Assembly: GCF_056746865.1 (NCBI RefSeq)
Contig: NZ_CM163382.1
DNA length: 64,000 nucleotides
Reading direction: 5' to 3' (one strand)
The notes under the pieces are model-generated. The model saw only the letters and a list, made by a program, of their open reading frames with translations, ran no database searches and had not been told where the DNA came from. The translations under genes were made by a program, and so were the position numbers. How positions within the stretch are numbered: the first letter of the stretch is position 1; each line of letters starts with the position of its first letter. Shown here in pieces: positions 5,943 to 50,272 of the stretch.

Positions 5943-7118
5943 ATGTCCCGCTTTTTGATTTGTAGTTTTGCCCTGGTTTTACTTTATCCCGCCGGGATTG
6001 ATATGTACCTCGTTGGTTTACCGCGCATCGCCGCCGATCTCAATGCCAGCGAAGCGCAGTTGCATATTGCGTTCTCCGTTTATCTGGCGGGCATGGCAGC
6101 TGCGATGTTATTTGCCGGTAAAGTGGCCGATCGTTCAGGGAGAAAGCCTGTCGCCATACCCGGCGCGGCGCTATTTATTATCGCCTCGGTGTTCTGTTCA
6201 CTGGCTGAAACCAGCACGTTATTTCTTGCAGGGCGCTTTCTACAGGGGCTGGGCGCGGGCTGTTGTTACGTGGTTGCGTTCGCCATTTTACGCGACACAC
6301 TGGATGATCGACGTCGGGCTAAAGTGCTGTCGTTACTCAACGGCATTACCTGCATCATTCCGGTGTTAGCGCCAGTGCTCGGACACCTGATTATGCTTAA
6401 ATTCCCGTGGCAGAGTCTGTTCTGGACGATGGCAACGATGGGCATCGCGGTACTGATGTTGTCTTTGTTTATTTTAAAAGAAACGCGCCCTGCGGCCCCC
6501 ACAAATTCGGACAAACCACGAGAAAATAGCGAGTCGCTGCTTAACCGGTTTTTCCTCAGCCGTGTTGTTATCACCACCCTCAGCGTTTCGGTGATCCTCA
6601 CCTTCGTCAACACGTCGCCGGTATTGCTGATGGAAATCATGGGTTTTGAGCGCGGAGAATACGCCACCATTATGGCGTTGACCGCTGGCGTCAGCATGAC
6701 CGTTTCATTCTCCACGCCATTTGCGCTGGGAATTTTTAAGCCACGTACGTTGATGATCACCTCGCAGGTATTATTCCTGGCGGCGGGCATCACCCTTGCC
6801 GTTTCACCTTCCCATGCGGTTTCTCTGTTTGGTATCACGCTGATTTGCGCCGGTTTCTCGGTAGGTTTTGGCGTAGCGATGAGTCAGGCGTTAGGGCCGT
6901 TTTCATTACGCGCGGGCGTAGCCAGCTCGACCTTAGGTATTGCGCAGGTTTGCGGTTCGTCACTGTGGATTTGGCTGGCAGCGGTGGTTGGTATCGGCGC
7001 ATGGAATATGCTGATCGGGATTCTGATTGCCTGTAGCATAGTGAGCCTGTTGCTGATTATGTTCGTCGCGCCTGGACGCCCGGTTGCCGCTCATGAAGAA
7101 ATCCATCACCACGCTTGA
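5943..7118 (+). CDS. mdtL: MFS multidrug efflux transporter MdtL
   Basis: 391-aa 12-TM MFS protein ([33 protein letters not shown]...). Position and sequence match K-12 MdtL. Confidence 0.9.
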
Positions 7119-8979: not shown

Positions 8980-9546
8980 ATGTCTGAAAAATTGCAGGTG
9001 GTTACGTTACTGGGGAGCCTGCGCAAAGGCTCATTTAATGGCATGGTTGCACGTACCCTGCCGAAAATTGCTCCGGCGAGCATGGAAGTCAATGCGTTAC
9101 CTTCCATTGCCGACATTCCCTTGTATGACGCTGACGTACAGCAGGAAGAAGGTTTTCCAGCAACGGTTGAAGCTCTGGCGGAACAGATCCGTCAGGCTGA
9201 CGGTGTGGTGATCGTCACGCCGGAATATAACTACTCGGTACCGGGTGGGCTGAAAAATGCCATCGACTGGCTTTCCCGCCTGCCGGATCAACCTCTGGCC
9301 GGTAAACCGGTGTTGATTCAGACCAGCTCAATGGGCGTGATTGGCGGCGCGCGCTGTCAGTATCACCTGCGCCAGATTCTGGTTTTCCTCGATGCAATGG
9401 TGATGAACAAGCCGGAATTTATGGGCGGCGTGATTCAGAACAAAGTTGATCCGCAAACCGGAGAAGTGATTGATCAGGGTACGCTGGACCACCTGACCGG
9501 GCAATTAACCGCATTTGGTGAGTTTATTCAGCGAGTTAAGATCTAA
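8980..9546 (+). CDS. chrR: NAD(P)H-dependent FMN reductase / chromate reductase ChrR (YieF)
   Basis: 188-aa flavodoxin-like reductase (MSEKLQVVTLLGSLRKGSFNGMVARTL...). Sequence and position match K-12 YieF. Confidence 0.88.
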   Translation: MSEKLQVVTLLGSLRKGSFNGMVARTLPKIAPASMEVNALPSIADIPLYDADVQQEEGFPATVEALAEQIRQADGVVIVTPEYNYSVPGGLKNAIDWLSRLPDQPLAGKPVLIQTSSMGVIGGARCQYHLRQILVFLDAMVMNKPEFMGGVIQNKVDPQTGEVIDQGTLDHLTGQLTAFGEFIQRVKI

Positions 9547-9549
9547 ATA

Positions 9550-24629: not shown

Positions 24630-24660
24630 ATGTAAGGTTTATGACAGTTTTATGACAAAT
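24630..24660 (-). promoter_or_regulatory. PhoB-binding Pho box(es) of the pstS promoter
   Basis: The minus strand reads ctgtcataaaactgtcataaaccttacatataactgtcac, matching the Pho-box consensus CTGTCATA(A/T)A(A/T)CTGTCA(C/T) about 80-100 bp upstream of the pstS start. Confidence 0.8.
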
Positions 24661-24799
24661 CAGAATTATTAATTAACTTTTTGATTTTATTGACTAAGAA
24701 AAAGAAAAGTAGTGTCATCTTTTTGTCATGCAAAGTGAAAACTCGCGGACAAAAATGCGTAAGATGACAACGGTGTGAGGAACACCGCGGTCAGTTCGT

Positions 24800-25870
24800 T
24801 TAGCGTACAATCTCAATTGTTATCGTTGCAGTCGCGGTAAATGTTCCTGGCGCGGGGCGAGCCCCCGTGAGGCTTGCAGGAGCAGCAGAAAAAGTGACGC
24901 TACCGGCTTTTTCACCAAAGACGTTTGATTTACCCATATCTGTCGGTAGTTCACCACCGTTAACGTTGATTTCCTTATTATTTTTATCATAAATTTTTAT
25001 CCCAACGTTCGGGTTTGATGTCACGACCATTGAGTTGTCAGTACTGGGTTCGGTAGCATAAAAAGAGGTACTGATATCATCAGTATTTAGTATTCCTAAA
25101 TTTTCACACTCAATGGTGACGGTTTTGGTAATTTTATGCGTTGTCACGGTACTTCCAGCTACCGAAGAAAAATCTGCTGCAGGAATTTCTTTAAAATCAA
25201 AATTAATGGGTCTTAAACTGTTAATTTCACAGCTTTGCGGTGCAGTGATATCGCCACGAATATAAACATCGGCCATAGGTTGTGAGTAATCAACCGGAGT
25301 GTCACGGCTTATAGTTCCGTACAATTTTGCCACGAGAGTTTCAGGGACAATTAACTTTCCAGCAAAAGTCTTCTTAATATAAAAATAAATTATTGCTTTT
25401 GCACCACTGGAAATACTTAATGGGTCCGTGCGACTACATTTATATGAACCTCCAGTAGGCCTGTTAGCATGGTATTCAAAAGGTGCATTAATGTATCCTA
25501 CACCGAGAAGGTCTATCGATATTCCAACATCCAGATTAGGATTCAAATTAAAGTAGTTTACATTAGAACGAACACCCGCATAACTTAAGGCCTCGTTTAT
25601 TCTCGCTGTATAGTAAATATAAGGAAACTCCCCCACTTTCCCTGTATCACAATGGCAGTGAGCAGGATAAGAGTCCCCATTTGTCACGGTTTTATTAAAG
25701 GTCTCTCCCACTCTGTTCTCGTCTGCCGTAATCAGATAGCCGGAAAAATCAAGTGTGCTATGAAAGGCCCCATTATCTGAGGTGCAGATACCTTTTGGGG
25801 CCGCAAATGTTGCACCACTAAAGGAGAAGATAAAAACAGTCAAGCACCACTGTATAATATACTTGTTCAT
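24800..25870 (-). CDS. Fimbrial tip adhesin-like subunit of a chaperone-usher operon (LpfD-like)
   Basis: 356-aa secreted protein (signal peptide MNKYIIQWCLTVFIFSFSGATFA) and last gene of a subunit-chaperone-usher-adhesin cluster. The two-domain size is typical of tip adhesins. Confidence 0.7.
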   Translation of the reverse strand: MNKYIIQWCLTVFIFSFSGATFAAPKGICTSDNGAFHSTLDFSGYLITADENRVGETFNKTVTNGDSYPAHCHCDTGKVGEFPYIYYTARINEALSYAGVRSNVNYFNLNPNLDVGISIDLLGVGYINAPFEYHANRPTGGSYKCSRTDPLSISSGAKAIIYFYIKKTFAGKLIVPETLVAKLYGTISRDTPVDYSQPMADVYIRGDITAPQSCEINSLRPINFDFKEIPAADFSSVAGSTVTTHKITKTVTIECENLGILNTDDISTSFYATEPSTDNSMVVTSNPNVGIKIYDKNNKEINVNGGELPTDMGKSNVFGEKAGSVTFSAAPASLTGARPAPGTFTATATITIEIVR

Positions 25871-25880
25871 AAAAATCCTT

Positions 25881-28403
25881 TTAATGACATGTCACACCTT
25901 GTTCAATTAAGCCGCTTTCACTTTCTGGTATTGAAAGTGAATAATCGAAGGTGCATGTAGTGGCGGCATTTTCCCCCCAGGAGAGCATCACTTGCCCCTT
26001 TTCAGGAAGGCCGGAGAGATAAAGCTCCCCCAGGTCACCGACAATCCCTGAATCAGCAGAGCTTGTATTTTGTACGGCAGCAATAGCGCCAAAAGGTGCT
26101 GGCTTACCTTTTGCATTCACCACTTTGAAGAGTACGCGATAGCCCACGTGGGTAACAAATTCTGCTTTAACCACCGCGCCACGGGTGGGAACCATCGTAA
26201 CGACGGTATTATCAAGTTCTATATTCGACTTCGAGAAATAGTTATCGCTGATTGCTACCCGGTTTTCATCATAAGGGTTTAGCTGTGTCTTGACCGTATA
26301 ACCACGCCAGTCCGTCGCAGCACCACGCATATTGTCTATTTCTAACCCGGCAGCCCCTGGTGCTTTAACAAGAGCTATGGTTTCACCCAACTCCTGGCTT
26401 AACGTTACGCCTTCGCTGTGAGCCAGAATTCCCCCTCTGATACCATAATTCAGCCTCTGAGAATTTTGGCTGTAGTTATAGCTGCCGTTCACCGTGCCAT
26501 AAGTGCCATCATAGGTCAGGGACATATTACCGCCAACCTCATCATCATGGCTGTTATAGGACTGCATTAAATTCCAGGAAAGGTTATTTCTTTCCAGCGC
26601 CGTACCGCTGAGTCCAAGTTGATGTGAGCTACCGGAATTATCGTTTTGCGATACAGAATAGGTGGCGTAACTATTCCCCCACCAGCCCGATAAAGGAACA
26701 GATAAAGAGAGCATGTAGATCTGCTCACTGGTGTTATCACTGGCATTGTTGTTCCCCGTCCCCTGCCGGGCAGTATTGGAATAACTCCAGGAGACGTTCC
26801 ACGAGAGACGCTTCCAGCTACTGCTGTAGCCAAATTGCATTAATCGTTCAACATCATCGGTATGCCAGTACTGCTGGCGACTTAATGTCAGATATAAGTT
26901 GCCATAATCTCTGCCCAGTGATTGCGTTAACGTTCCTTCCACACGGCTGCGGCGGTTACCGGTTTCCCAGAAATCTTCAGGATTATTACGCCGGGACGCC
27001 CATTCATTGAGGGTATAATAACCTTCGGTGGAGTAACGATAGCCAACCAGGCGCAAGCTGGTATCCGTATCGTCAAAGCGTTTCGAGTACAGGAAGCGAT
27101 AAGACTGACCGGTTTCCGTATCATCATGGCTAAATTTCGCGCGAGCATGTGTCACATCGAAAGAAATTGCGCCCAATGCGCCAAGATCTTTACCGACACC
27201 CAAAGCGGCAGAACCATACTTTTCAGCAGCCTGCATACCTCCATATAAGGTGAAACCGTAGGGAAAACCATGAAGGATCTGAGCCTGAATAACGTCAGGG
27301 GTAAAGCCATCTTCATCGCGTAATTCTCCCACACTGACATCAACATCAGTTTGACCTTCACGTTTGAGGATGGCTAACGACGCATAAGGTTGAGTAAATC
27401 GTTGTTCGCTACCGTCTTCTTCTTTGATGGTTACGTCCAGATCACCACCTGTACTGGCGGTGTTGAGATCGGTAATTTCAAAAGCACCTTGTGGAACGGC
27501 TGACTGATAAATCACGTAGCCATTCTGGCGAATAATGACAGTGGCGTTAGACTTTGCAATCCCACGCACTACGGGGGCAAATCCGTTTTGGCTGGCAGGC
27601 AACATATCGTTATCGGTATACAAGCGTGCGCCACGAATTTGCGTACTGTCGAAGATATCGCTCGCCGTCCACGTATCACCTATCATAATCTGGCTTCTTA
27701 ACGCAGCTATATCACGTTGTATCCAGGTGCTTATAGAGTTGTATTCTGCACTGCCATCGGTCGTATTTAAGGTGCTGTAATTGCGTAATCGCCACGGCCC
27801 AATATTCAGTCCATTGCGCAGATTGAGATAACTGGTATCTGTCTCTTGTGAACCATAATCCGAACGTAGAGTATGTGAACCAGAAAAATCGTAGTTGATG
27901 GTGAGCGCGTTAATCCCCTCATCCCAACGCGAGGGGCTGATGTAATCATAAGCCATCGCATCCATATAGATTTGGGGAATGGAGATATTCAGTTGCAGTT
28001 TATCGCTGTCGAACTGCCATGATGAGCCTTCAATGCGTGGCCCAGGATCAATACAGACTGTTTCATCTACATCATTGAGCGATTTCAGCGCATCAACTTT
28101 TACGCCAAAGGTGGTTAGCGTTTTTTTAATAGCGACAAAGCAGGCGTGTAAATCAGCATCGGGATTATCCTGAACAAAGGTCACATCCTGACGTTCAAAC
28201 ATTTTACCGTTGATAAAAATATCAACGCTATAAACACCTGGGGGCATCAGGTTTGCCCGATTAAACTGGCGAATATCGACTCCGGATTGATGGTCGATTT
28301 CCAGAAGCGCCGGATTGAATACACTGACCTCGGCCATCAGGCTTTGCGAGAAAATCAGACACGTCCCTGCCGTGAGGCCAACCTTTATTCTGGTCGTCAT
28401 CAT
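25881..28403 (-). CDS. Fimbrial outer-membrane usher (LpfC/FimD-like)
   Basis: 840-aa ORF with N-terminal signal sequence and the FNPALLEID motif. Size and position match a chaperone-usher-pathway usher. Confidence 0.88.
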   Translation of the reverse strand: MMTTRIKVGLTAGTCLIFSQSLMAEVSVFNPALLEIDHQSGVDIRQFNRANLMPPGVYSVDIFINGKMFERQDVTFVQDNPDADLHACFVAIKKTLTTFGVKVDALKSLNDVDETVCIDPGPRIEGSSWQFDSDKLQLNISIPQIYMDAMAYDYISPSRWDEGINALTINYDFSGSHTLRSDYGSQETDTSYLNLRNGLNIGPWRLRNYSTLNTTDGSAEYNSISTWIQRDIAALRSQIMIGDTWTASDIFDSTQIRGARLYTDNDMLPASQNGFAPVVRGIAKSNATVIIRQNGYVIYQSAVPQGAFEITDLNTASTGGDLDVTIKEEDGSEQRFTQPYASLAILKREGQTDVDVSVGELRDEDGFTPDVIQAQILHGFPYGFTLYGGMQAAEKYGSAALGVGKDLGALGAISFDVTHARAKFSHDDTETGQSYRFLYSKRFDDTDTSLRLVGYRYSTEGYYTLNEWASRRNNPEDFWETGNRRSRVEGTLTQSLGRDYGNLYLTLSRQQYWHTDDVERLMQFGYSSSWKRLSWNVSWSYSNTARQGTGNNNASDNTSEQIYMLSLSVPLSGWWGNSYATYSVSQNDNSGSSHQLGLSGTALERNNLSWNLMQSYNSHDDEVGGNMSLTYDGTYGTVNGSYNYSQNSQRLNYGIRGGILAHSEGVTLSQELGETIALVKAPGAAGLEIDNMRGAATDWRGYTVKTQLNPYDENRVAISDNYFSKSNIELDNTVVTMVPTRGAVVKAEFVTHVGYRVLFKVVNAKGKPAPFGAIAAVQNTSSADSGIVGDLGELYLSGLPEKGQVMLSWGENAATTCTFDYSLSIPESESGLIEQGVTCH

Positions 28404-28427
28404 AATACGCCTATCCTTTTCCCTTGC

Positions 28428-29159
28428 TTACAGCGTCATTTTTATCGGGTCACTGACTGCGCCGTAATCATTAATAAATCGCCAGATCATTTGGCCTCCC
28501 GCAGAATTAGCAGGTAAAGGTAACGTGAGCGTTTCAAAAGGACGGATCATGTTGAGGGGCACATCATGACCATCAACGATGACATCCATCACACTGATAT
28601 GAATCGGGTTGGGATTCTCTACAATCAGGTTTCGCCCTTCCCGGTGCCACTTCACCTTCGGTGCAGCATCTTCGGGAATCAGGCGAATGCTTGCCGGTCG
28701 CCAGAACAGCTTGATACGCGTTTTAACTGCGATTTCCAGTGAGTTCGCCGCTTTGTTGCTCGCAGAGGGCGGAATATTTTTAATATTCAGCCAGAAGACT
28801 GACTCGCGATCATCAGGCAATGACACACCTTTGGTATGAATAATGCGTAATACTTTTTCTTGCGCGGGTTCTAATCGTGATACCGGAGGAATAACGGTAA
28901 ACGGTGCTTTGCTTTTATCCTCTTTATTAAACGGATCTACCCATGCCTGGATGAGATAAGGAATTTTTTCTTCCTTGCTAAATACAGAAATAGATTTATC
29001 TGGGTTATTACTTAAGTAAACTACCCGTGTACCACCAATGACAACGCCTGCATAGGTTAATGCTGGTTGGACTAAAAAAACACTGAGTATAATCGCGGTA
29101 AATAACTTACATGAAACGGTTGTTTTAAAGAGCCTGATTAAACAACTTTTTCTGGACAT
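28428..29159 (-). CDS. Periplasmic fimbrial chaperone (PapD/FimC-like)
   Basis: 243-aa ORF with signal peptide and chaperone-like motifs (VVIGGTRVVY; NPxxxP-like region). It sits between the major subunit and the usher. Confidence 0.85.
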   Translation of the reverse strand: MSRKSCLIRLFKTTVSCKLFTAIILSVFLVQPALTYAGVVIGGTRVVYLSNNPDKSISVFSKEEKIPYLIQAWVDPFNKEDKSKAPFTVIPPVSRLEPAQEKVLRIIHTKGVSLPDDRESVFWLNIKNIPPSASNKAANSLEIAVKTRIKLFWRPASIRLIPEDAAPKVKWHREGRNLIVENPNPIHISVMDVIVDGHDVPLNMIRPFETLTLPLPANSAGGQMIWRFINDYGAVSDPIKMTL

Positions 29160-29206
29160 AACGACTCCCTGGCCAAAGCCAACTGAATAAAAAGGCCCTT
29201 GATAAA

Positions 29207-29779
29207 TTATTTCTTATATTCGACAGTAAATTGTGAATCGGCGTTCGCCGTACCCGCCGTTACAGTTGCATTGGTTGCCACATAGCGTGCAATAAACTTC
29301 ATTTCAGCCTTGCCTTCAGCGTCGATAGCGGTATAGGCAGAATCGTTATAAAGTTTAACCTGCGAGTTATCTGACTGGTTAAAAATACGAATACCGACAC
29401 CCGTTGCCGCAATCGCTTGTCCTGTACCGGTAAAATCGCCAGGGTTGCCCGCTGTAAGCGGCGTACCCACTTTCAGGTCGCCGTCGCCGCCAGGCGCTTC
29501 TGTACCATCAAAACGAACGGCTGCCTGAGTGTAGGTTGCCGGGCACTTTTCAAGTTTAATACTGAACTGCTGTGGTGACGCCAGACTACCTACACCTGAA
29601 AAAGCATTTTTACTGACTTTACCCAGTGGTACGGTTTGATCGGCTGTATCGGAGGTAACTTCACAAGTAGTGTCGACAATTTCACCGACGAAGTGAACAA
29701 CACCATCTTCTGCCAGTGCATGTCCGGCCAGCATTAAAGATGCCAGAGTGAATGCACCGCCTATAATATTACGCTTCAT
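29207..29779 (-). CDS. Major fimbrial subunit (type 1 / Lpf-like pilin)
   Basis: 190-aa ORF with signal peptide (MKRNIIGGAFTLASLMLAGHALA), a conserved Cys pair and a C-terminal beta-strand motif (FTVEYKK) typical of chaperone-usher pilins. First gene of the cluster, with an AT-rich region upstream. Confidence 0.85.
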   Translation of the reverse strand: MKRNIIGGAFTLASLMLAGHALAEDGVVHFVGEIVDTTCEVTSDTADQTVPLGKVSKNAFSGVGSLASPQQFSIKLEKCPATYTQAAVRFDGTEAPGGDGDLKVGTPLTAGNPGDFTGTGQAIAATGVGIRIFNQSDNSQVKLYNDSAYTAIDAEGKAEMKFIARYVATNATVTAGTANADSQFTVEYKK

Positions 29780-29999
29780 AAAAACTCCATTGATATAATA
29801 TATCCTTTACCATGAATCATCACTTATATTAATAAGTGTATTTTTGATCCAAAGGAATAGTACACCAAAGAGACAACTTTATCTAAAAATAATATTAATT
29901 ACTCAATCTTAAATATAAATTTATTATTTAAATATTATTAAAACAGCAAGAAATCAAGTTTATTATCAGACATTAGCAATAATTCAGAATATATTTATA

Positions 30000-30750
30000 T
30001 CAATGGGCATATGAATAATGGAATTATTGATATCACTTATAATAAATATCCTCCGGCATAGCCGGAGGTTTTTCAAATGCGCCTATAAGGCTCTCTTACC
30101 AGCCGCGCCCTAACAGGCGCACACGATCTGACATTTGCATCCAACTTCGTTACTTACGGCCCGTAAACGGGCTGCCCGGATAGGGAATCGATAACTGCTC
30201 TCCCATTTTATCCTCTTCAAGCTGGTGCTTTATGTAATCCTGTATCTTCGCCGTGTTCTTACCCACTGTATCGACGTAGTACCCTCTGCACCAGAACTCC
30301 CTGTTCCTGTATTTGAATTTCAAATCACCAAACTGCTCGTAAAGCATCAGACTGCTTTTCCCTTTCAGATATCCCATAAACCCGGATACGCTCATTTTAG
30401 GCGGGATCTCCACAAGCATATGGATATGATCTGCACAGCATTCAGCTTCCAGAATCCGTACGCTTTTCCACTCACACAGCTTTCTCAAAATACTGCCTAT
30501 TGCTCTACGCTTCTCTCTGTAGAACACCTGTCTTCGGTATTTTGGCGCAAAAACTATGTGATATTTACAGTTCCATCGGGTGTGCGCTAAGCTCTTTTCG
30601 TTCCCCATTGGGACCCCCTTTTGATTTCTTGTTTGACACTTGCAGTTGCCAGACCGCAAGGTGTTTTAACAAATCAAAAGGGGTTTTAATAACTGGCTCA
30701 AAGCTGAAAGCTTTCCGGAACCCCCAGCCTAGCTGGGGGTTTTCTGTGCA
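30000..30750 (-). mobile_element. IS200/IS605-family insertion element (single tnpA); boundaries approximate
   Basis: Contains an IS200-type HUH transposase ORF flanked by sub-terminal hairpins (cctccggcatagccggagg at about 30050; cccccagcctagctggggg at about 30722). Exact ends were not determined. Confidence 0.6.
30150..30608 (-). CDS. tnpA: IS200-type transposase TnpA (HUH, Y1 family)
   Basis: MGNEKSLAHTRWNCKYHIVFAPKYRRQVFY...ADHIHMLVEIPPK... carries the HUH motif (HIH) and the conserved IS200 TnpA N-terminus. The track ORF starts 17 codons earlier at 30659. Confidence 0.88.
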   Translation of the reverse strand: MGNEKSLAHTRWNCKYHIVFAPKYRRQVFYREKRRAIGSILRKLCEWKSVRILEAECCADHIHMLVEIPPKMSVSGFMGYLKGKSSLMLYEQFGDLKFKYRNREFWCRGYYVDTVGKNTAKIQDYIKHQLEEDKMGEQLSIPYPGSPFTGRK

Positions 30751-30759
30751 CAAAAAAGG

Positions 30760-30792
30760 GCCGCCGGTCGGCAGCCCTTTTCTATCAACGAG
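30760..30792 (-). terminator. glmS rho-independent terminator
   Basis: Minus strand reads aaaagggctgccgaccggcggccctttttt immediately after the glmS stop. Confidence 0.75.
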
Positions 30793-30797
30793 AGATA

Positions 30798-32627
30798 TTA
30801 CTCAACCGTAACCGATTTCGCCAGGTTACGCGGCTGGTCAACGTCGGTGCCTTTGATCAGCGCAACGTGGTAAGCCAGCAGTTGCAGCGGAACGGTGTAG
30901 AAGATCGGTGCAATAACCTCTTCCACATGCGGCATCTCGATGATGTGCATGTTATCGCTACTTACAAAACCCGCATCCTGATCGGCGAAGACATACAACT
31001 GACCGCCACGCGCGCGAACTTCTTCAATGTTGGATTTCAGTTTTTCCAGCAATTCGTTGTTCGGTGCAACGACGATAACCGGCATATCGGCATCAATCAG
31101 CGCCAGCGGACCGTGTTTCAGTTCGCCTGCAGCGTAGGCTTCAGCGTGAATGTAAGAGATCTCTTTCAGCTTCAATGCGCCTTCCAGCGCGATTGGGTAC
31201 TGATCGCCACGGCCCAGGAACAGCGCGTGATGTTTGTCAGAGAAATCTTCTGCCAGTGCTTCAATGCGTTTGTCCTGAGACAGCATCTGCTCAATACGGC
31301 TCGGCAGCGCCTGCAGACCATGCACGATGTCATGTTCAATGGAGGCATCCAGACCTTTCAGGCGAGACAGCTTCGCCACCAGCATCAACAGCACAGTTAA
31401 CTGAGTGGTGAATGCTTTAGTGGACGCCACGCCAATTTCCGTACCGGCATTGGTCATCAGCGCCAGATCGGATTCGCGCACCAGAGAAGAACCCGGAACG
31501 TTACAGATTGCCAGCGAACCAAGGTAACCCAGCTCTTTCGACAGACGCAGGCCCGCCAGGGTATCCGCGGTTTCGCCAGACTGTGACAAGGTGATCATCA
31601 GGCTGTTACGGCGCACGGCAGATTTGCGATAGCGGAATTCAGAGGCGATTTCGACGTCGCACGGAATACCTGCCAGCGATTCAAACCAGTAGCGGGAAAC
31701 CATACCGGAGTTATAAGAAGTACCACAGGCGAGGATCTGAATATGCTCAACCTTCGACAGCAGTTCGTCGGCGTTCGGTCCCAGCTCGCTTAAATCAACC
31801 TGACCGTGGCTGATGCGCCCGGTAAGGGTGTTTTTGATCGCGTTCGGTTGTTCGTAGATCTCTTTCTGCATGTAGTGGCGGTAAATACCTTTATCACCCG
31901 CGTCATATTGCAGATTGGATTCGATATCCTGACGTTTTACTTCCGCGCCAGTTTTATCGAAGATGTTTACCGAACGGCGAGTGATTTCCGCAATATCGCC
32001 CTCTTCAAGGAAGATAAAGCGACGAGTCACTGGCAACAGCGCCAGCTGGTCAGAAGCGATAAAGTTTTCGCCCATGCCCAGGCCAATCACCAGCGGGCTA
32101 CCAGAACGTGCCGCCAGCAGGGTATCCGGGTGACGGGAGTCCATGATCACTGTACCGTACGCACCACGCAGTTGCGGGATAGCACGCAGAACAGCCTCAC
32201 GCAGAGTACCGCCTTGTTTCAGCTCCCAGTTCACCAGATGGGCAATCACTTCGGTGTCGGTTTCAGAAACGAAGGTATAGCCACGCGCTTTTAACTCTTC
32301 ACGCAGCGGTTCATGGTTTTCGATGATGCCGTTATGCACCACCACAATGTGTTCAGAAACATGCGGATGCGCGTTAGCTTCTGAAGGTTCACCGTGGGTC
32401 GCCCAGCGAGTATGAGCAATACCGGTGCCGCCATGCAGAGGATGTTCTTCCGCTGCCTGAGCCAGCATCTGGACTTTACCGAGGCGACGCAGGCGGGTCA
32501 TATGACCTTCTGCATCAACAACGGCCAGACCGGCAGAGTCATATCCGCGGTATTCAAGACGACGTAAACCTTCAAGAAGGATTTCTGCTACATCACGTTG
32601 CGCGATCGCGCCAACAATTCCACACAT
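30798..32627 (-). CDS. glmS: Glutamine--fructose-6-phosphate aminotransferase GlmS
   Basis: 609 aa with N-terminal MCGIVGA (catalytic Cys2) and C-terminal ...LAKSVTVE. Confidence 0.96.
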
Positions 32628-42700: not shown

Positions 42701-44590
42701 TTATGCGCTACGACGCAGCATACCCTGTTTTTTCAGCCACACCAGCAGAATGGAGATGGCCGCAGGCGTGACGCCAGAAATACGCGAAGCCTGACCGATA
42801 GAGGCCGGTTTGTGATCGTTAAGTTTGGCGATCACTTCGTTAGAAAGACCGGATACCTGGCGGTAATCCAGCGTCGCTGGTAGCAGGGTGTTCTCGTTAC
42901 GCAGCTGCTTTTCGATCTCATCTTGCTGGCGCGCGATATAACCTTCGTATTTAACCTGAATCTCAACCTGTTCCGCCGCCTGTTCGTCTGTCAACGCAGG
43001 GGCAAACGGCGTCAGCGTGGTTAATTTTTCATAAGTCATTTCCGGACGACGCAGCAGATCTTCACCACTGGCTTCACGGGAAAGTGGCGCAGTCAGGTGA
43101 GCATTCACTTCGGCTGCAGCTTCCGCCGACGGGGTTACCCAGGTCGATTTCAGACGCTGACGCTCACGCTCGATATTCTCAAGTTTCTCGTTAAAGCGCG
43201 CCCAACGTTCGTCATCCACCAGGCCCAGTTCACGACCGATTTCAGTCAAACGCAGATCCGCATTATCTTCGCGCAGCATCAGACGATATTCTGCGCGCGA
43301 AGTAAACATACGATACGGTTCTTTGGTTCCTAAAGTGCACAGGTCATCAACCAGTACGCCGAGATACGCCTGAGAACGCGCCGGAGCCCAACCTTCTTTG
43401 TCAGCAGACAGACGGGCAGCGTTAAGACCAGCCAGCAAACCTTGCGCAGCGGCTTCTTCGTAACCGGTAGTGCCGTTAATCTGACCAGCAAAGAACAGCC
43501 CCTGGATAAACTTGCTCTCCAGCGTCGGTTTCAGGTCGCGTGGATCGAAGAAGTCATACTCAATGGCATAACCCGGACGCACGATCTTCGCGTTTTCCAT
43601 CCCCTGCATGGAGCGGACGATTTGCATCTGCACATCGAACGGCAGGCTGGTGGAGATACCGTTCGGATAAATTTCGTTTGAGGTCAGCCCTTCCGGTTCA
43701 AGGAAGATCTGATGCTGATTTCTGTCGGCGAAGCGCATGACTTTGTCTTCGATCGACGGGCAGTAGCGTGGGCCGACACCTTCGATCACCCCTGCATACA
43801 TTGGGCTACGATCGAGGTTACTGCGGATCACATCATGGGTTTTCTCGTTGGTATGGGTGATATAACACGGCACCTGCTGTGGATGCTGGGACGCATTACC
43901 CATAAACGAGAATACCGGCATTGGGTTATCGCCATGCTGTTGCGCCAGCACGCTGAAGTCGATAGTACGCGCATCAATACGCGGCGGTGTCCCGGTTTTC
44001 AGACGACCAACGCGCAGCGGCAGTTCACGCAAACGGCGAGAGAGCGGAATGGACGGCGGATCACCAGCACGACCACCGCTGTAGTTATCCAGACCGATAT
44101 GAATTTTACCGTCGAGGAACGTCCCAACGGTGAGCACGACGGCTTTGGCACGGAACTTCAGTCCCATTTGGGTAACAGCACCAACCACGCGATCGTTTTC
44201 GACAATAAGATCTTCAACCGCCTGCTGGAAGATCATCAGGTTCGGTTGGTTCTCCAGCGCCGTACGTACCGCCTGCCGGTAGAGCACACGATCCGCCTGA
44301 GCACGGGTAGCGCGAACCGCTGGTCCCTTGCTTGCGTTTAGTATCCTAAACTGGATACCCGCCTGATCGATCGCTTTCGCCATCAGACCGCCGAGTGCAT
44401 CCACTTCTTTTACCAGATGTCCCTTCCCAATACCGCCGATCGCCGGGTTGCAGCTCATCTGCCCCAGAGTGTCGATATTGTGTGTCAAAAGCAGAGTCTG
44501 TTGACCCATACGCGCCGCGGCCATCGCGGCCTCGGTGCCTGCATGACCCCCGCCAATGATGATGACGTCAAAAGGATCCGGATAAAACAT
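42701..44590 (-). CDS. mnmG: tRNA uridine-5-carboxymethylaminomethyl modification enzyme MnmG (GidA)
   Basis: 629 aa; N-terminal FAD-binding motif ([15 protein letters not shown]). Confidence 0.96.
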
Positions 44591-44678
44591 GGTGATTGCC
44601 TCGCATAACGCGGTATGAAAATGGATTGAAGCCCGGGCCGTGGATTCTACTCAACTTTGTCGGCTTGAGAAAGACCTG

Positions 44679-44950
44679 GGATCCTGGGTATTAAAAAGAA
44701 GATCTATTTATTTAGAGATCTGTTCTATTGTGATCTCTTATTAGGATCGCACTACCCTGTGGATAACAAGGATCCAGCTTTTAAGATCAACAACCTGGAA
44801 AGGATCATTAACTGTGAATGATCGGTGATCCTGGACCGTATAAGCTGGGATCAGAATGAGGGGTTATACACAACTCAAAAACTGAACAACGGTTGTTCTT
44901 TGGATAACTACCGGTTGATCCAAGCTTCCTGACAGAGTTATCCACAGTGG
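44679..44950. other. Chromosomal replication origin oriC (DnaA boxes R1-R4, three AT-rich 13-mers, GATC cluster)
   Basis: 13-mers gatctatttattt (44701-44713), gatctgttctatt (44717-44729) and gatctcttattag (44732-44744); DnaA box R1 tgtggataa (44758-44766) and R4 ttatccaca (44938-44946); dense GATC sites. Near-identical to my memory of the K-12 minimal oriC, located between mnmG and mioC. Confidence 0.95.
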
Positions 44951-44968
44951 ATCGCACGATCTGTATAC

Positions 44969-50050: not shown

Positions 50051-50272
50051 AATGAAGTGGCGTCCTTTCGTCAAAAGTTCTGCGTAAATTGCGAGTATAG
50101 ACGTTTCTTGCTGGTGGCTAAAATAGTCTCAAAGGGGGGGTATTTTTCTTTGAGCCAGGTTAATGTGGCCGCATTTAGGAGTACGATTTTGCCGTTAATC
50201 GTGCATACTGTGCGCTTTTTTGTGGGCCAAGGGACTAAGCACACATTTCATATTTCAACGAAAGACTAGTCT

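Follow-up and report, generated by a model that had tools for sequence, protein, structure and literature searches.

Organization of the glmS-lpf locus

The DNA analyzed here, called the window below, is a stretch of 64,000 nucleotides of contig NZ_CM163382.1 (NCBI RefSeq assembly GCF_056746865.1). Between the intrinsic terminator of glmS and a fimbrial operon, it carries an insertion sequence (IS) of the IS200 group. The genes and features of the locus are as follows (window coordinates):

30798-30836, minus strand: 3' end of glmS with the TnsD recognition sequence of attTn7, intact (...CGTAACCTGGCGAAATCGGTTACGGTTGAGTAA); the stop codon is at 30798-30800
30752-30781, minus strand: intrinsic terminator of glmS, the insertion target, AAAAGGGCTGCCG-accg-GCGGCCCTTTT and the rest of T6 (ssDNA fold; intact in the empty allele)
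30041-30751, minus strand: IS200C, complete, 711 bp (empty-allele comparison; copies elsewhere)
24658-30795, minus strand: lpf-O113 fimbrial island, including the glmS terminator and the IS (homology breaks against the K-12-type locus)
29207-29779, minus strand: lpfA (RefSeq annotation)
28428-29159, minus strand: lpfB (RefSeq annotation)
25881-28403, minus strand: lpfC (RefSeq annotation)
further on than lpfC, minus strand: lpfD (RefSeq annotation)

The glmS terminator reads GGGCTGCCGaccgGCGGCCC followed by T6 on the minus strand, with the hairpin at 30758-30777 (30752-30777 with the T run). Folded as single-stranded DNA, it reaches -12.1 kcal/mol (z = -4.73), and its 40-nt MFE of -22.5 lies below all 150 background windows. 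The IS has the same orientation as glmS, and its left end starts right after the sixth T of the terminator.

The fimbrial operon is lpfABCD-O113 (RefSeq names; Pfam Fimbrial and PapD matches). With strain 200088 and its K-12-type pstS-glmS locus as the island-free reference, the homology stops at window 24657 and resumes at 30796, at the stop codon of glmS; from there on (window 30796-30850), the identity to K-12 is 98.2%. Terminator and IS therefore both belong to the lpf-O113 island. The first-pass annotation of this DNA had raised the possibility that the element separates glmS from an ancestral island boundary; it does not, since the island begins at the stop codon itself. The K-12 record NZ_CP032679.1 lacks the pst-phoU region beside glmS.

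Structure and ends of the element

The features recognized within the element are the following:

30150-30608, minus strand: tnpA, encoding a 152-aa Y1 HUH transposase, ATG start (Pfam, motifs, RefSeq WP_000526135.1)
30719-30741, minus strand: subterminal hairpin of the left end (LE), AACCCCCAGC-tag-GCTGGGGGTT, IS nt 11-33, with AGAAAA before it (ssDNA fold)
30618-30741, minus strand: IS200 tnpA leader RNA motif, Rfam STnc490 (RF01405) (cmscan)
30615-30683, minus strand: SD-sequestering stem-loop of the 5'UTR, IS nt 69-137 (RNA fold)
30041-30073, minus strand: right end (RE), made of AAAAA, the hairpin CCTCCGGC-tat-GCCGGAGG (30050-30068) and the 9-nt tail ATATTTATT up to the right cleavage site (ssDNA fold)

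TnpA matches Pfam Y1_Tnp (PF01797) with E = 3.8e-38 over profile positions 2-121 of 121. The catalytic motifs are H61-I-H63 and Y125...Q129, and the segments DHIHM and YIKHQ align with DHIHI and YIENQ of the IS608 transposase. Relatives of known structure are found in the PDB entries 2ec2, 2f4f, 2a6m (IS608 TnpA) and 2xm3 (ISDra2), and an index of the collection lists exactly this TnpA sequence in 21,686 blocks. tnpA is the sole Pfam-supported ORF in the 711-bp insert; tnpB and iscB are absent from it. The first-pass annotation had described a single-ORF HUH transposase of the IS200/IS605 family, lying between the glmS terminator and the fimbrial operon, and both the family and the position are borne out. 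The alternative it had considered, an ORF fragment without element ends or a member of another family, fails with a full-length ORF that carries the HUH and Tyr motifs and with two ends defined by an empty site.

The exact ends, which that annotation had left unclear, are set within 2 nt by a genome lacking the element, as it had suggested they might be. In the empty allele of CB209, the flanks are 100% identical to those of the window; the match runs through 30042 and starts again from 30752, with a 2-nt overlap and an insert of 711 bp. Nucleotide 1 of IS200C (LE) is window 30751 and nucleotide 711 (RE) is window 30041, the position at which the other copies also begin aligning. A shared TT/AA allows the placement to shift by at most 2 nt, to 30043-30753. 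Alignment ambiguity, and not a duplication, accounts for these two shared nucleotides, since the empty allele has an A run of 6 nt and the occupied one has 2 + 6 nt on the two sides of the IS. The 711-bp insert is the whole difference between the two alleles, and a target-site duplication is absent. The termini (GTGCAC... and ...ATATTTATT) do not form inverted repeats; subterminal hairpins are present at both ends, both on the minus (top) strand.

The name IS200C, the ISfinder name used by RefSeq/PGAP for this E. coli element, is taken from the annotation of the protein WP_000526135.1, which is identical to that of the window. In strain CFSAN061770, the identical sequence is labelled by RefSeq "IS200/IS605-like element IS200C family transposase", and the element at this site is an already known and catalogued E. 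coli IS. CFSAN061770 also has an extra IS4, on either side of which BLAST gives 99.99% identity to the window. We are confident in reading the insert at 30041-30751 (minus strand) as a complete and apparently functional, tnpA-only IS200C of the IS200 group (IS200/IS605 family), inserted without duplication immediately 3' of the T6 of the glmS terminator, within the glmS-proximal end of the lpf-O113 island.

Terminal hairpins and leader RNA

Two strong hairpins had been said to flank tnpA, and both are present where they were placed: cccccagcctagctggggg at 30722-30740 lies within the LE hairpin, and cctccggcatagccggagg at 30050-30068, with ttttt after it, is the RE hairpin. Their part as neighbors of the insertion did not stand, as they are the LE and RE of the element itself and the target is the hairpin of the glmS terminator. 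As single-stranded DNA, the LE hairpin folds with -11.7 kcal/mol (z = -4.01 vs. shuffled sequence) and the RE hairpin with -10 kcal/mol (z = -3.65 vs. shuffled sequence). RE is conserved in copies from eight genera and is scored as terminator-like on both strands. Weak matches to Rfam PsrR1 and BjrC1505, and a second one to STnc490 at RE (E = 0.3-0.6), are below the gathering score and are attributed to a generic hairpin or terminator resemblance.

The leader matches STnc490 over the full model (1-124) with 146.4 bits (gathering score 56) and E = 3e-31, and the first helix of the match is the LE hairpin. In Salmonella IS200, the equivalent hairpin (nt 12-34) is a bidirectional terminator that blocks incoming transcription (PMC4513863, PMC5435999). 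The second stem-loop, at 30615-30683, folds as RNA with -40.4 kcal/mol (z = -4.1), and its 3' arm holds AAAAGGGG just upstream of the AUG. Its extent agrees with that of the SD-sequestering stem-loop in the Salmonella IS200 5'UTR, at nt 69-138 (PMC4513863).

Target sites in the IS200 group

The insertion beside a terminator recurs at other sites. The set compared consists of 24 independent full-length sites: the window, 9 from E. coli and 14 from Kosakonia, Phytobacter, Citrobacter, Edwardsiella, Superficieibacter, Tatumella, Xenorhabdus and Vibrio. In all 24, a GC-rich hairpin and its T tail immediately precede LE; the first-pass annotation had remarked that IS200-type elements insert next to hairpins. 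The junction falls exactly where the T tail ends on its 3' side. The GC-rich portion of the stem is 6-9 nt away, and the orientation never varies. T is found at -1, -2 and -5 in 24/24 sites and at -6 in 22/24, with the consensus TTT[T/A]TT immediately before the junction.

Hairpins were assessed at the 24 sites by the MFE against the local background, because a perfect-stem detector missed five of them, including the glmS terminator with its G-T pair. The 40-nt MFE upstream of LE ranges from -13 to -26 kcal/mol, vs. background means of -4 to -10. Among the T-rich candidate sites of the window, such a hairpin occurs at 12/343 (3.5%), and two of the 12 are the glmS terminator and the RE of the IS, which itself fits the rule of a hairpin with a T tail. 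Of the ten places listed for E. coli-type assemblies, nine have a co-oriented gene that ends ~40-60 bp before LE. An exception to the TT rule is a 207-bp mini-element of Erwinia, which has C at -2 (CT before the junction). A scan of contigs with a CCADHIHM-encoding pattern gave 31 loci, none of them from Salmonella, Yersinia or E. coli.

The link with terminators could, in principle, result from purifying selection alone, with IS200C inserting at any T-rich single-stranded DNA and the harmless copies surviving behind terminators, where positions are neutral. Insertions within genes do occur, and the inv gene of Yersinia is interrupted by IS1541. Another case is hisD984::IS200 in Salmonella (PMC4513863). 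According to a bioRxiv survey (2025-26), sequences resembling terminators are enriched upstream of ISs, above all in the case of IS200/IS605; the survey reads upstream terminators as favoring the persistence of the IS. On the other hand, the junction is nucleotide-precise with respect to tail, stem and orientation, and a hairpin accompanies only the 3.5% of T-rich candidates in the window noted above. If selection acted alone, copies should also persist at T runs in other harmless intergenic places, and the 24 sites include no such case. Selection as the whole explanation is therefore unlikely, although selection against insertions elsewhere could contribute to the association.

A possible mechanism of target choice

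A mechanistic choice may also be at work, though the odds are somewhat below even. Transposases of the IS200 group would then select intrinsic terminators, inserting where the T tail ends, 6-9 nt from the GC-rich portion of the stem and with T at -1, -2 and -5; a conserved AAAA guide would read the tail exposed by the stem, in the same geometry as at the element's own RE. Following the paradigm of IS608 and ISDra2, TnpA would excise the top strand as a single-stranded circle, and the circle would insert into the lagging-strand template where this is single-stranded. Base interactions with the AAAA just 5' of the foot of the LE hairpin might then serve to read the T-rich target. AAAAA likewise precedes the hairpin at RE, which ends in the same motif (ATATTTATT at the cleavage site) and could be read in the same way. 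In the target, the hairpin stem would keep the T tail exposed and single-stranded, protruding as a 3' overhang.

The putative AAAA guide is invariant in all copies examined and so shows no covariation with the target. Two observations are consistent with these steps. In IS608, the target TTAC is read by the guide AAAG 5' of the LE hairpin, and a target with a duplex on its 5' side is tolerated and is partly protected from SSB (PMC5027513). In the window, oriC is at 44590-44968; the fork therefore heads to lower coordinates and the top strand of the IS (window minus) is the lagging-strand template, at this single site. It is less likely that TnpA binds the target terminators as true mimics of RE than that it uses an exposed 3' tail, because the stems and loops of the targets vary freely in sequence and length.

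If such a choice operates, terminators would constitute a built-in "safe harbour" common to the sampled enterobacterial genera and Vibrio. The T-tail rule itself explains both the harmlessness and the persistence of the IS200-group elements, and it suggests a testable model of target reading. The association with terminators had been reported before, for IS1541 and in the bioRxiv survey; to our knowledge, the proposed mechanism and the exact rule go beyond those reports.

Comparison with known systems

With Salmonella IS200, the element of the window shares the single 152-aa Y1 gene, the LE hairpin, the SD-sequestering stem-loop, the full STnc490 motif and the absence of inverted repeats and of duplication. 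The difference is in length (707-709 bp quoted, vs. 711 bp here by the empty site), and nothing else of substance separates the two.

IS1541 comes from a different host and shows about 85% identity, the likeness being drawn from literature descriptions. Odaert and colleagues reportedly found, in 1998, many IS1541 copies just downstream of genes at stem-loops resembling rho-independent terminators, and proposed these as hot spots. This element of Yersinia pestis and Y. pseudotuberculosis is a closely related, tnpA-only member of the IS200 group (PMC4513863). One copy lies between pheL and pheA (PMC3082878), where, we infer, the pheA attenuator terminator would be expected.

The transposases of IS608 (Helicobacter pylori) and ISDra2 (Deinococcus) are homologous, with the HUH and Tyr/Gln residues aligned. 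These elements also have in common with IS200C the subterminal hairpins, an insertion 3' of a short conserved sequence at LE without duplication and a guide 5' of the hairpin foot (AAAG in IS608; probably AAAA here). The orientation of the window copy, a single site, would fit their preference for the lagging-strand template. They differ in that both also carry tnpB and use the plain targets TTAC and TTGAT, whereas the target here is T-rich and, at all 24 full-length sites examined, adjoins a hairpin. In IS200C, ~10 nt separate the LE cleavage site from the hairpin, vs. 19 nt in IS608.

Rarity and mobility of the insertion

The insertion at this site is present in only 3/5426 complete E. coli genomes, while the lpfA-O113 flank is present in 1940. 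IS200C has roughly 16,000 places in the 5426 genomes. Elsewhere in E. coli, nine copies have a length of 711 bp and 0-6 mismatches; copies at four other loci, in other assemblies, are identical over 711/711 positions, and up to 36 matching places occur in some genomes. Judged from these comparisons, the insertion appears as a recent, lineage-specific transposition, because the site is polymorphic, the copies at other loci are 100% identical and the matching places reach 36. Being so rare among complete genomes, it could serve as a marker for strain typing. Strains with the site occupied include CFSAN061770, EC31 and EF5-18-41.

Transposition of IS200 in the laboratory is notoriously inactive (PMC4513863), and in Salmonella it is almost undetectable (PMC5435999, PMC4513863). 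There, processing of the IS200 5'UTR yields sRNAs that control invF and >70 other genes (PMC5435999, PMC4513863), and the leader (STnc490) is fully conserved in the IS200C of the window. The copy could accordingly be viewed as a dormant or domesticated relic, kept for regulatory RNAs (the 5'tnpA-derived sRNA and the art200 antisense RNA), and not as an active transposon. The presence/absence polymorphism with a perfect empty allele, the identical copies at several other loci and their number in some genomes make this improbable; moreover, an RNA role and transposition are not mutually exclusive.

Position relative to attTn7

Tn7 has its classic site in the DNA that follows glmS: TnsD binds the end of the glmS coding sequence and the insertion occurs ~20-25 bp past the stop codon (PMC2918618). 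In the window, Tn7 would be expected to insert at about 30773-30778, within the stem of the terminator, and nothing occupies this point. The IS200C junction is 46 bp beyond the stop codon and ~20-25 bp beyond that point, leaving attTn7 empty and the TnsD site undisturbed. The first-pass annotation had put the element in the attTn7 neighborhood, which it called a common landing site, and had raised the integrity of attTn7 as a check; the integrity is confirmed, and attTn7 is not what explains the location. Tn7 insertion makes a 5-bp duplication, and none is present here; the annotation from pstS to glmS contains no tns genes.

Tn7 and IS200C thus have in common the neighborhood, just downstream of glmS and in or beside its terminator, and they differ in the means (TnsD for Tn7, a Y1 transposase for IS200C), in the distance from the stop codon and in the duplication. 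The lpf-O113 island occupies the same spacer, and a Tn7-like or island-integration targeting of the hotspot, in place of the specificity of the IS, could be imagined on that ground. It is very improbable, given the distance of the junction, the lack of annotated tns genes, the presence of the IS in only 3 of the 1940 genomes with the lpfA-O113 flank, and the other 23 full-length IS200-group sites, which are at unrelated terminators (e.g., neighbors of guaA, glyS and fabF). The insertion of IS200C is unrelated to Tn7 and is explained by the terminator habit of the IS200 group itself.

There is practically no chance that the T run belongs to the element (~717 bp), or that the hairpins flanking tnpA are pre-existing target hairpins, since, although BLAST alignments of other copies extend 6-15 nt beyond the left end into A/T runs (to query 808-817) and insertion beside hairpins had been noted for such elements, the T6 run is kept in the empty allele, no placement beyond the 2-nt ambiguity reconstructs that allele (which rules out a 717-bp element), the bases upstream of -2 vary by site (TTTTTT, ATTATT, TTTGTT, TTCATT), and the LE and RE hairpins are found in every copy at every locus.

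The insertion probably has no consequences for the host. It leaves the coding sequence of glmS, the terminator behind it and the TnsD site intact; the IS brings insulating hairpins of its own, and tnpA would be tightly repressed, by homology to Salmonella IS200. On the side of the fimbrial operon, the 262-bp region upstream of lpfA is unchanged.

The element and its ends

Between glmS and the genes for long polar fimbriae lies IS200C, an insertion sequence (IS) on the minus strand with a right end (RE) facing lpfA and a left end (LE) facing glmS. The features of the locus are as follows.

Features of the glmS–lpfA region
30050–30068: RE hairpin cctccggcatagccggagg, then ttttt (ssDNA fold, z = −3.65 vs. 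shuffled controls)
30150–30608, minus strand: tnpA ORF, 152 aa (ORF call)
30722–30740: LE hairpin cccccagcctagctggggg (ssDNA fold, z = −4.01 vs. shuffled controls)
30752–30777, minus strand: glmS terminator, GGGCTGCCG-accg-GCGGCCC then T6 (ssDNA fold, z = −4.73)
30798–30800, minus strand: 3′ end of glmS (609 aa)
downstream of glmS, minus strand: lpfA, lpfB, lpfC, lpfD (O113-type long polar fimbriae), then pstS (Pfam and RefSeq annotation)

The first-pass annotation had placed an IS200/IS605-family tnpA element between the glmS terminator and the fimbrial operon, and this assignment stands. The ORF covers the whole Pfam profile Y1_Tnp ("Transposase IS200 like," E = 3.8e-38); in alignment with the solved transposases (IS608, ISDra2, Sulfolobus), the HUH motif corresponds to H61-I-H63 and the catalytic Tyr/Gln to Y125/Q129. 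E. coli CFSAN061770, EC31, and EF5-18-41 are 100% identical to the window over 29700–30900, and RefSeq labels their ORF "IS200/IS605-like element IS200C family transposase" (WP_000526135.1), from which the name IS200C is taken.

Strain CB209 has the same lpfA-O113/glmS arrangement without the element. Its sequence equals that of the window exactly up to 30042 and then from 30752 on, with two nucleotides (AA) common to both matches; the insert is therefore 711 bp long, without target duplication. This comparison fixes the ends within 2 nt (30041–30751, 30042–30752, or 30043–30753), and the first placement is adopted because other IS200C copies align from 30041. In element orientation (minus strand), the left junction reads ...GGGCTGCCGACCGGCGGCCCTTTTTT | GTGCACAGAAAACCCCCAGCTAGGCTGGGGGTTCC... 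and the right junction ...GAAAAACCTCCGGCTATGCCGGAGGATATTTATT | ATAAGTGATATC....

The two strong hairpins noticed earlier at 30050 and ~30722 are present, and they are the element's own subterminal hairpins, found again in every copy at every locus examined. They are alike, both fitting AACCnCCnGC-TAn-GCnGGnGG with a run of A before each. Rfam STnc490 matches 30618–30741 on the minus strand (146 bits, full model), and the resemblance between the hairpins explains a weak second match at RE. The internal anatomy matches that of published IS200: the LE hairpin occupies IS nt 11–33, and the long 5′ UTR stem–loop nt 69–137, with the Shine–Dalgarno sequence buried in the fold; the published positions are nt 12–34, for a bidirectional terminator shielding tnpA, and nt 69–138 (PMC4513863, PMC5435999). 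With tnpA full length, free of stop or frameshift, and both ends present, an ORF fragment lacking ends is ruled out. Judged from its sequence, this copy has all the parts required for function, and it agrees with the IS200 group in transposase type, gene content, end structure, leader, LE flank, and lack of target duplication.

In Xenorhabdus griffiniae (L030, ~6330–6347), an IS200-like copy has its RE hairpin broken by sequence beginning CTGTCTCTTGATCA, a start that we take to resemble an IS50/IS4-type terminal repeat; a second element may have inserted there into the IS200 right end.

Insertion after terminators

The places listed for the exact TnpA number 10, or nine distinct sites, in E. 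coli-type assemblies. In all 10, LE comes after a GC-rich hairpin with a T-rich tail, and in 9/10 a co-oriented gene ends ~40–60 bp upstream of LE. Further IS200-group copies were sought by a scan with one genome per species, which yielded 14 full-length copies with readable flanks, 80%–94% identical, in Kosakonia, Phytobacter, Citrobacter, Edwardsiella, Superficieibacter, Tatumella, Xenorhabdus, and Vibrio; the hairpin and T tail are upstream of LE in 14/14. Over the 24 independent full-length sites (the window, nine E. coli sites, and these 14), T occurs at −1, −2, and −5 in every case, at −6 in 22, at −4 in 21, and at −3 in 17. The 40 nt upstream of LE fold at −13 to −26 kcal/mol vs. local background means of −4 to −10, and no site has more than 7% of its background windows folding equally well. 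In the 64-kb window, such a hairpin is carried by only 12 of 343 comparable T-rich sites; the glmS terminator is one of these and RE of the IS another.

The glmS terminator was thus hit as a terminator and not for its position beside glmS. The first-pass proposal of an insertion beside a hairpin holds for the glmS terminator hairpin as target; the two hairpins flanking tnpA, on the other hand, are the IS ends. The unoccupied sites at 9545–9549 (−), 34458 (−), and 1099 (+) fit the rule of a strong hairpin and T tail and are predicted landing sites for IS200C.

Earlier work has already linked IS200-type elements to terminators. IS1541 in Y. pestis was reportedly associated with terminators by Odaert et al. 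in 1998. A recent survey found an excess of terminator-like sequences directly upstream of ISs, with IS200/IS605 showing it most strongly (bioRxiv 10.1101/2025.07.22.666184). In Yersinia, IS1541 lies between pheL and pheA (PMC3082878), a copy that would fit this habit if placed after the attenuator terminator. With this record and the IS200-group features, the element is an ordinary, already annotated IS, correctly identified.

In Erwinia mallotivora (L020, 6476–6682), a 207-bp mini-IS200 without tnpA, with LE nt 1–118 fused to RE nt 613–711, resembles a nonautonomous derivative. It directly follows a terminator-like hairpin and T run, with the junction CT| and not TT.

attTn7 and the lpf-O113 island

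The first pass had placed the element in the neighborhood of attTn7, a common landing site for accessory DNA. All that Tn7 requires is the sequence bound by TnsD, within the last ~36 bp of glmS; it inserts ~20–25 bp farther on, some 20 bp after the stop codon (PMC2918618). The window keeps this sequence (...CGTAACCTGGCGAAATCGGTTACGGTTGAGTAA) intact, and the expected Tn7 point (~30773–30778), inside the terminator stem, is empty. The distance from the glmS stop to the IS junction is 46 bp, and with all 24 sites at a hairpin and T tail, terminator targeting replaces attTn7 as the explanation.

Homology to the K-12-type pstS–glmS locus ends at 24657 and restarts at 30796; the lpf-O113 island is therefore 24658–30795, with its edge directly at the glmS stop codon. 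The 206 bp of K-12-type spacer that it replaces include the K-12 terminator of glmS and the bases at the Tn7 insertion point; a different glmS terminator, brought by the island, directly follows the stop codon. The first pass had left unclear whether the IS separates glmS from an island boundary; it does not, the island edge (30795) being on the glmS side of the IS, and the IS lies inside the glmS-side end of the island. In a K-12 substrain record (NZ_CP032679.1), bglG adjoins glmS, and the pstSCAB-phoU region is therefore missing there.

Mobility and effects on neighbors

Of 5426 complete E. coli genomes, only three have the element at this site, while 1940 carry the lpfA-O113 flank. A TnpA identical to this one is found in 21,686 index blocks of the protein collection, and as many as 36 places match in some E. 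coli genomes. In E. coli-type assemblies, nine copies elsewhere on the chromosome have the same length of 711 bp with 0–6 mismatches, and four of these are identical to the window copy. The IS is in current circulation, and its transposition to this site is recent and lineage-specific. No effects on neighboring genes are expected, since the insertion leaves the glmS terminator whole and does not alter the 262 bp from RE to the start codon of lpfA, and each end of the IS has a terminator-like hairpin.

Proposed mechanism

In IS608, TnpA excises a circle of the top strand and joins it to ssDNA 3′ of the tetranucleotide TTAC, which is recognized by a guide (AAAG) immediately 5′ of the foot of the LE hairpin; the lagging-strand template is favored, and a target with a duplex on its 5′ side is still active and partly protected from SSB inhibition (PMC5027513). 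In IS200C, AGAAAA precedes the LE hairpin and GAAAAA the RE hairpin, and the LE flank (TTTTTT|) has a T-rich motif in common with the end of RE (ATATTTATT|). By analogy, an AAAA guide would read a TTTT target, which the common motif fits; the guide is invariant across all copies examined and thus gives no covariation signal for the pairing. With oriC at 44590–44968, the fork passing the IS should move toward lower coordinates, and the minus strand (the IS top strand, with hairpin and T tail) would therefore be the lagging-strand template. The folded terminator stem would present its T tail like the 5′-duplex target of IS608. Guide reading, lagging-strand template, and stem-exposed tail are all steps that we infer.

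Other observations in the window

The chromosomal replication origin, ~14 kb from the IS, lies between mioC and mnmG and contains DnaA boxes as well as 13-mers of the GATCTATTTATTT type. The window is 99.99% identical to CFSAN061770 apart from an IS4 copy between kup and ravA in that strain, absent from the window (~50128–50139); the DNA therefore belongs to a sister strain of CFSAN061770, not to that strain. The last ~1.4 kb (62563–64000) has no match in the CFSAN061770 stretch compared. By correspondence with the annotation of that record, a 16S rRNA gene is expected at ~60.8–62.3 kb and tRNA-Glu at ~62.4–62.5 kb, as predicted parts of an rRNA operon near the high-coordinate end, not at 62.5–64 kb.
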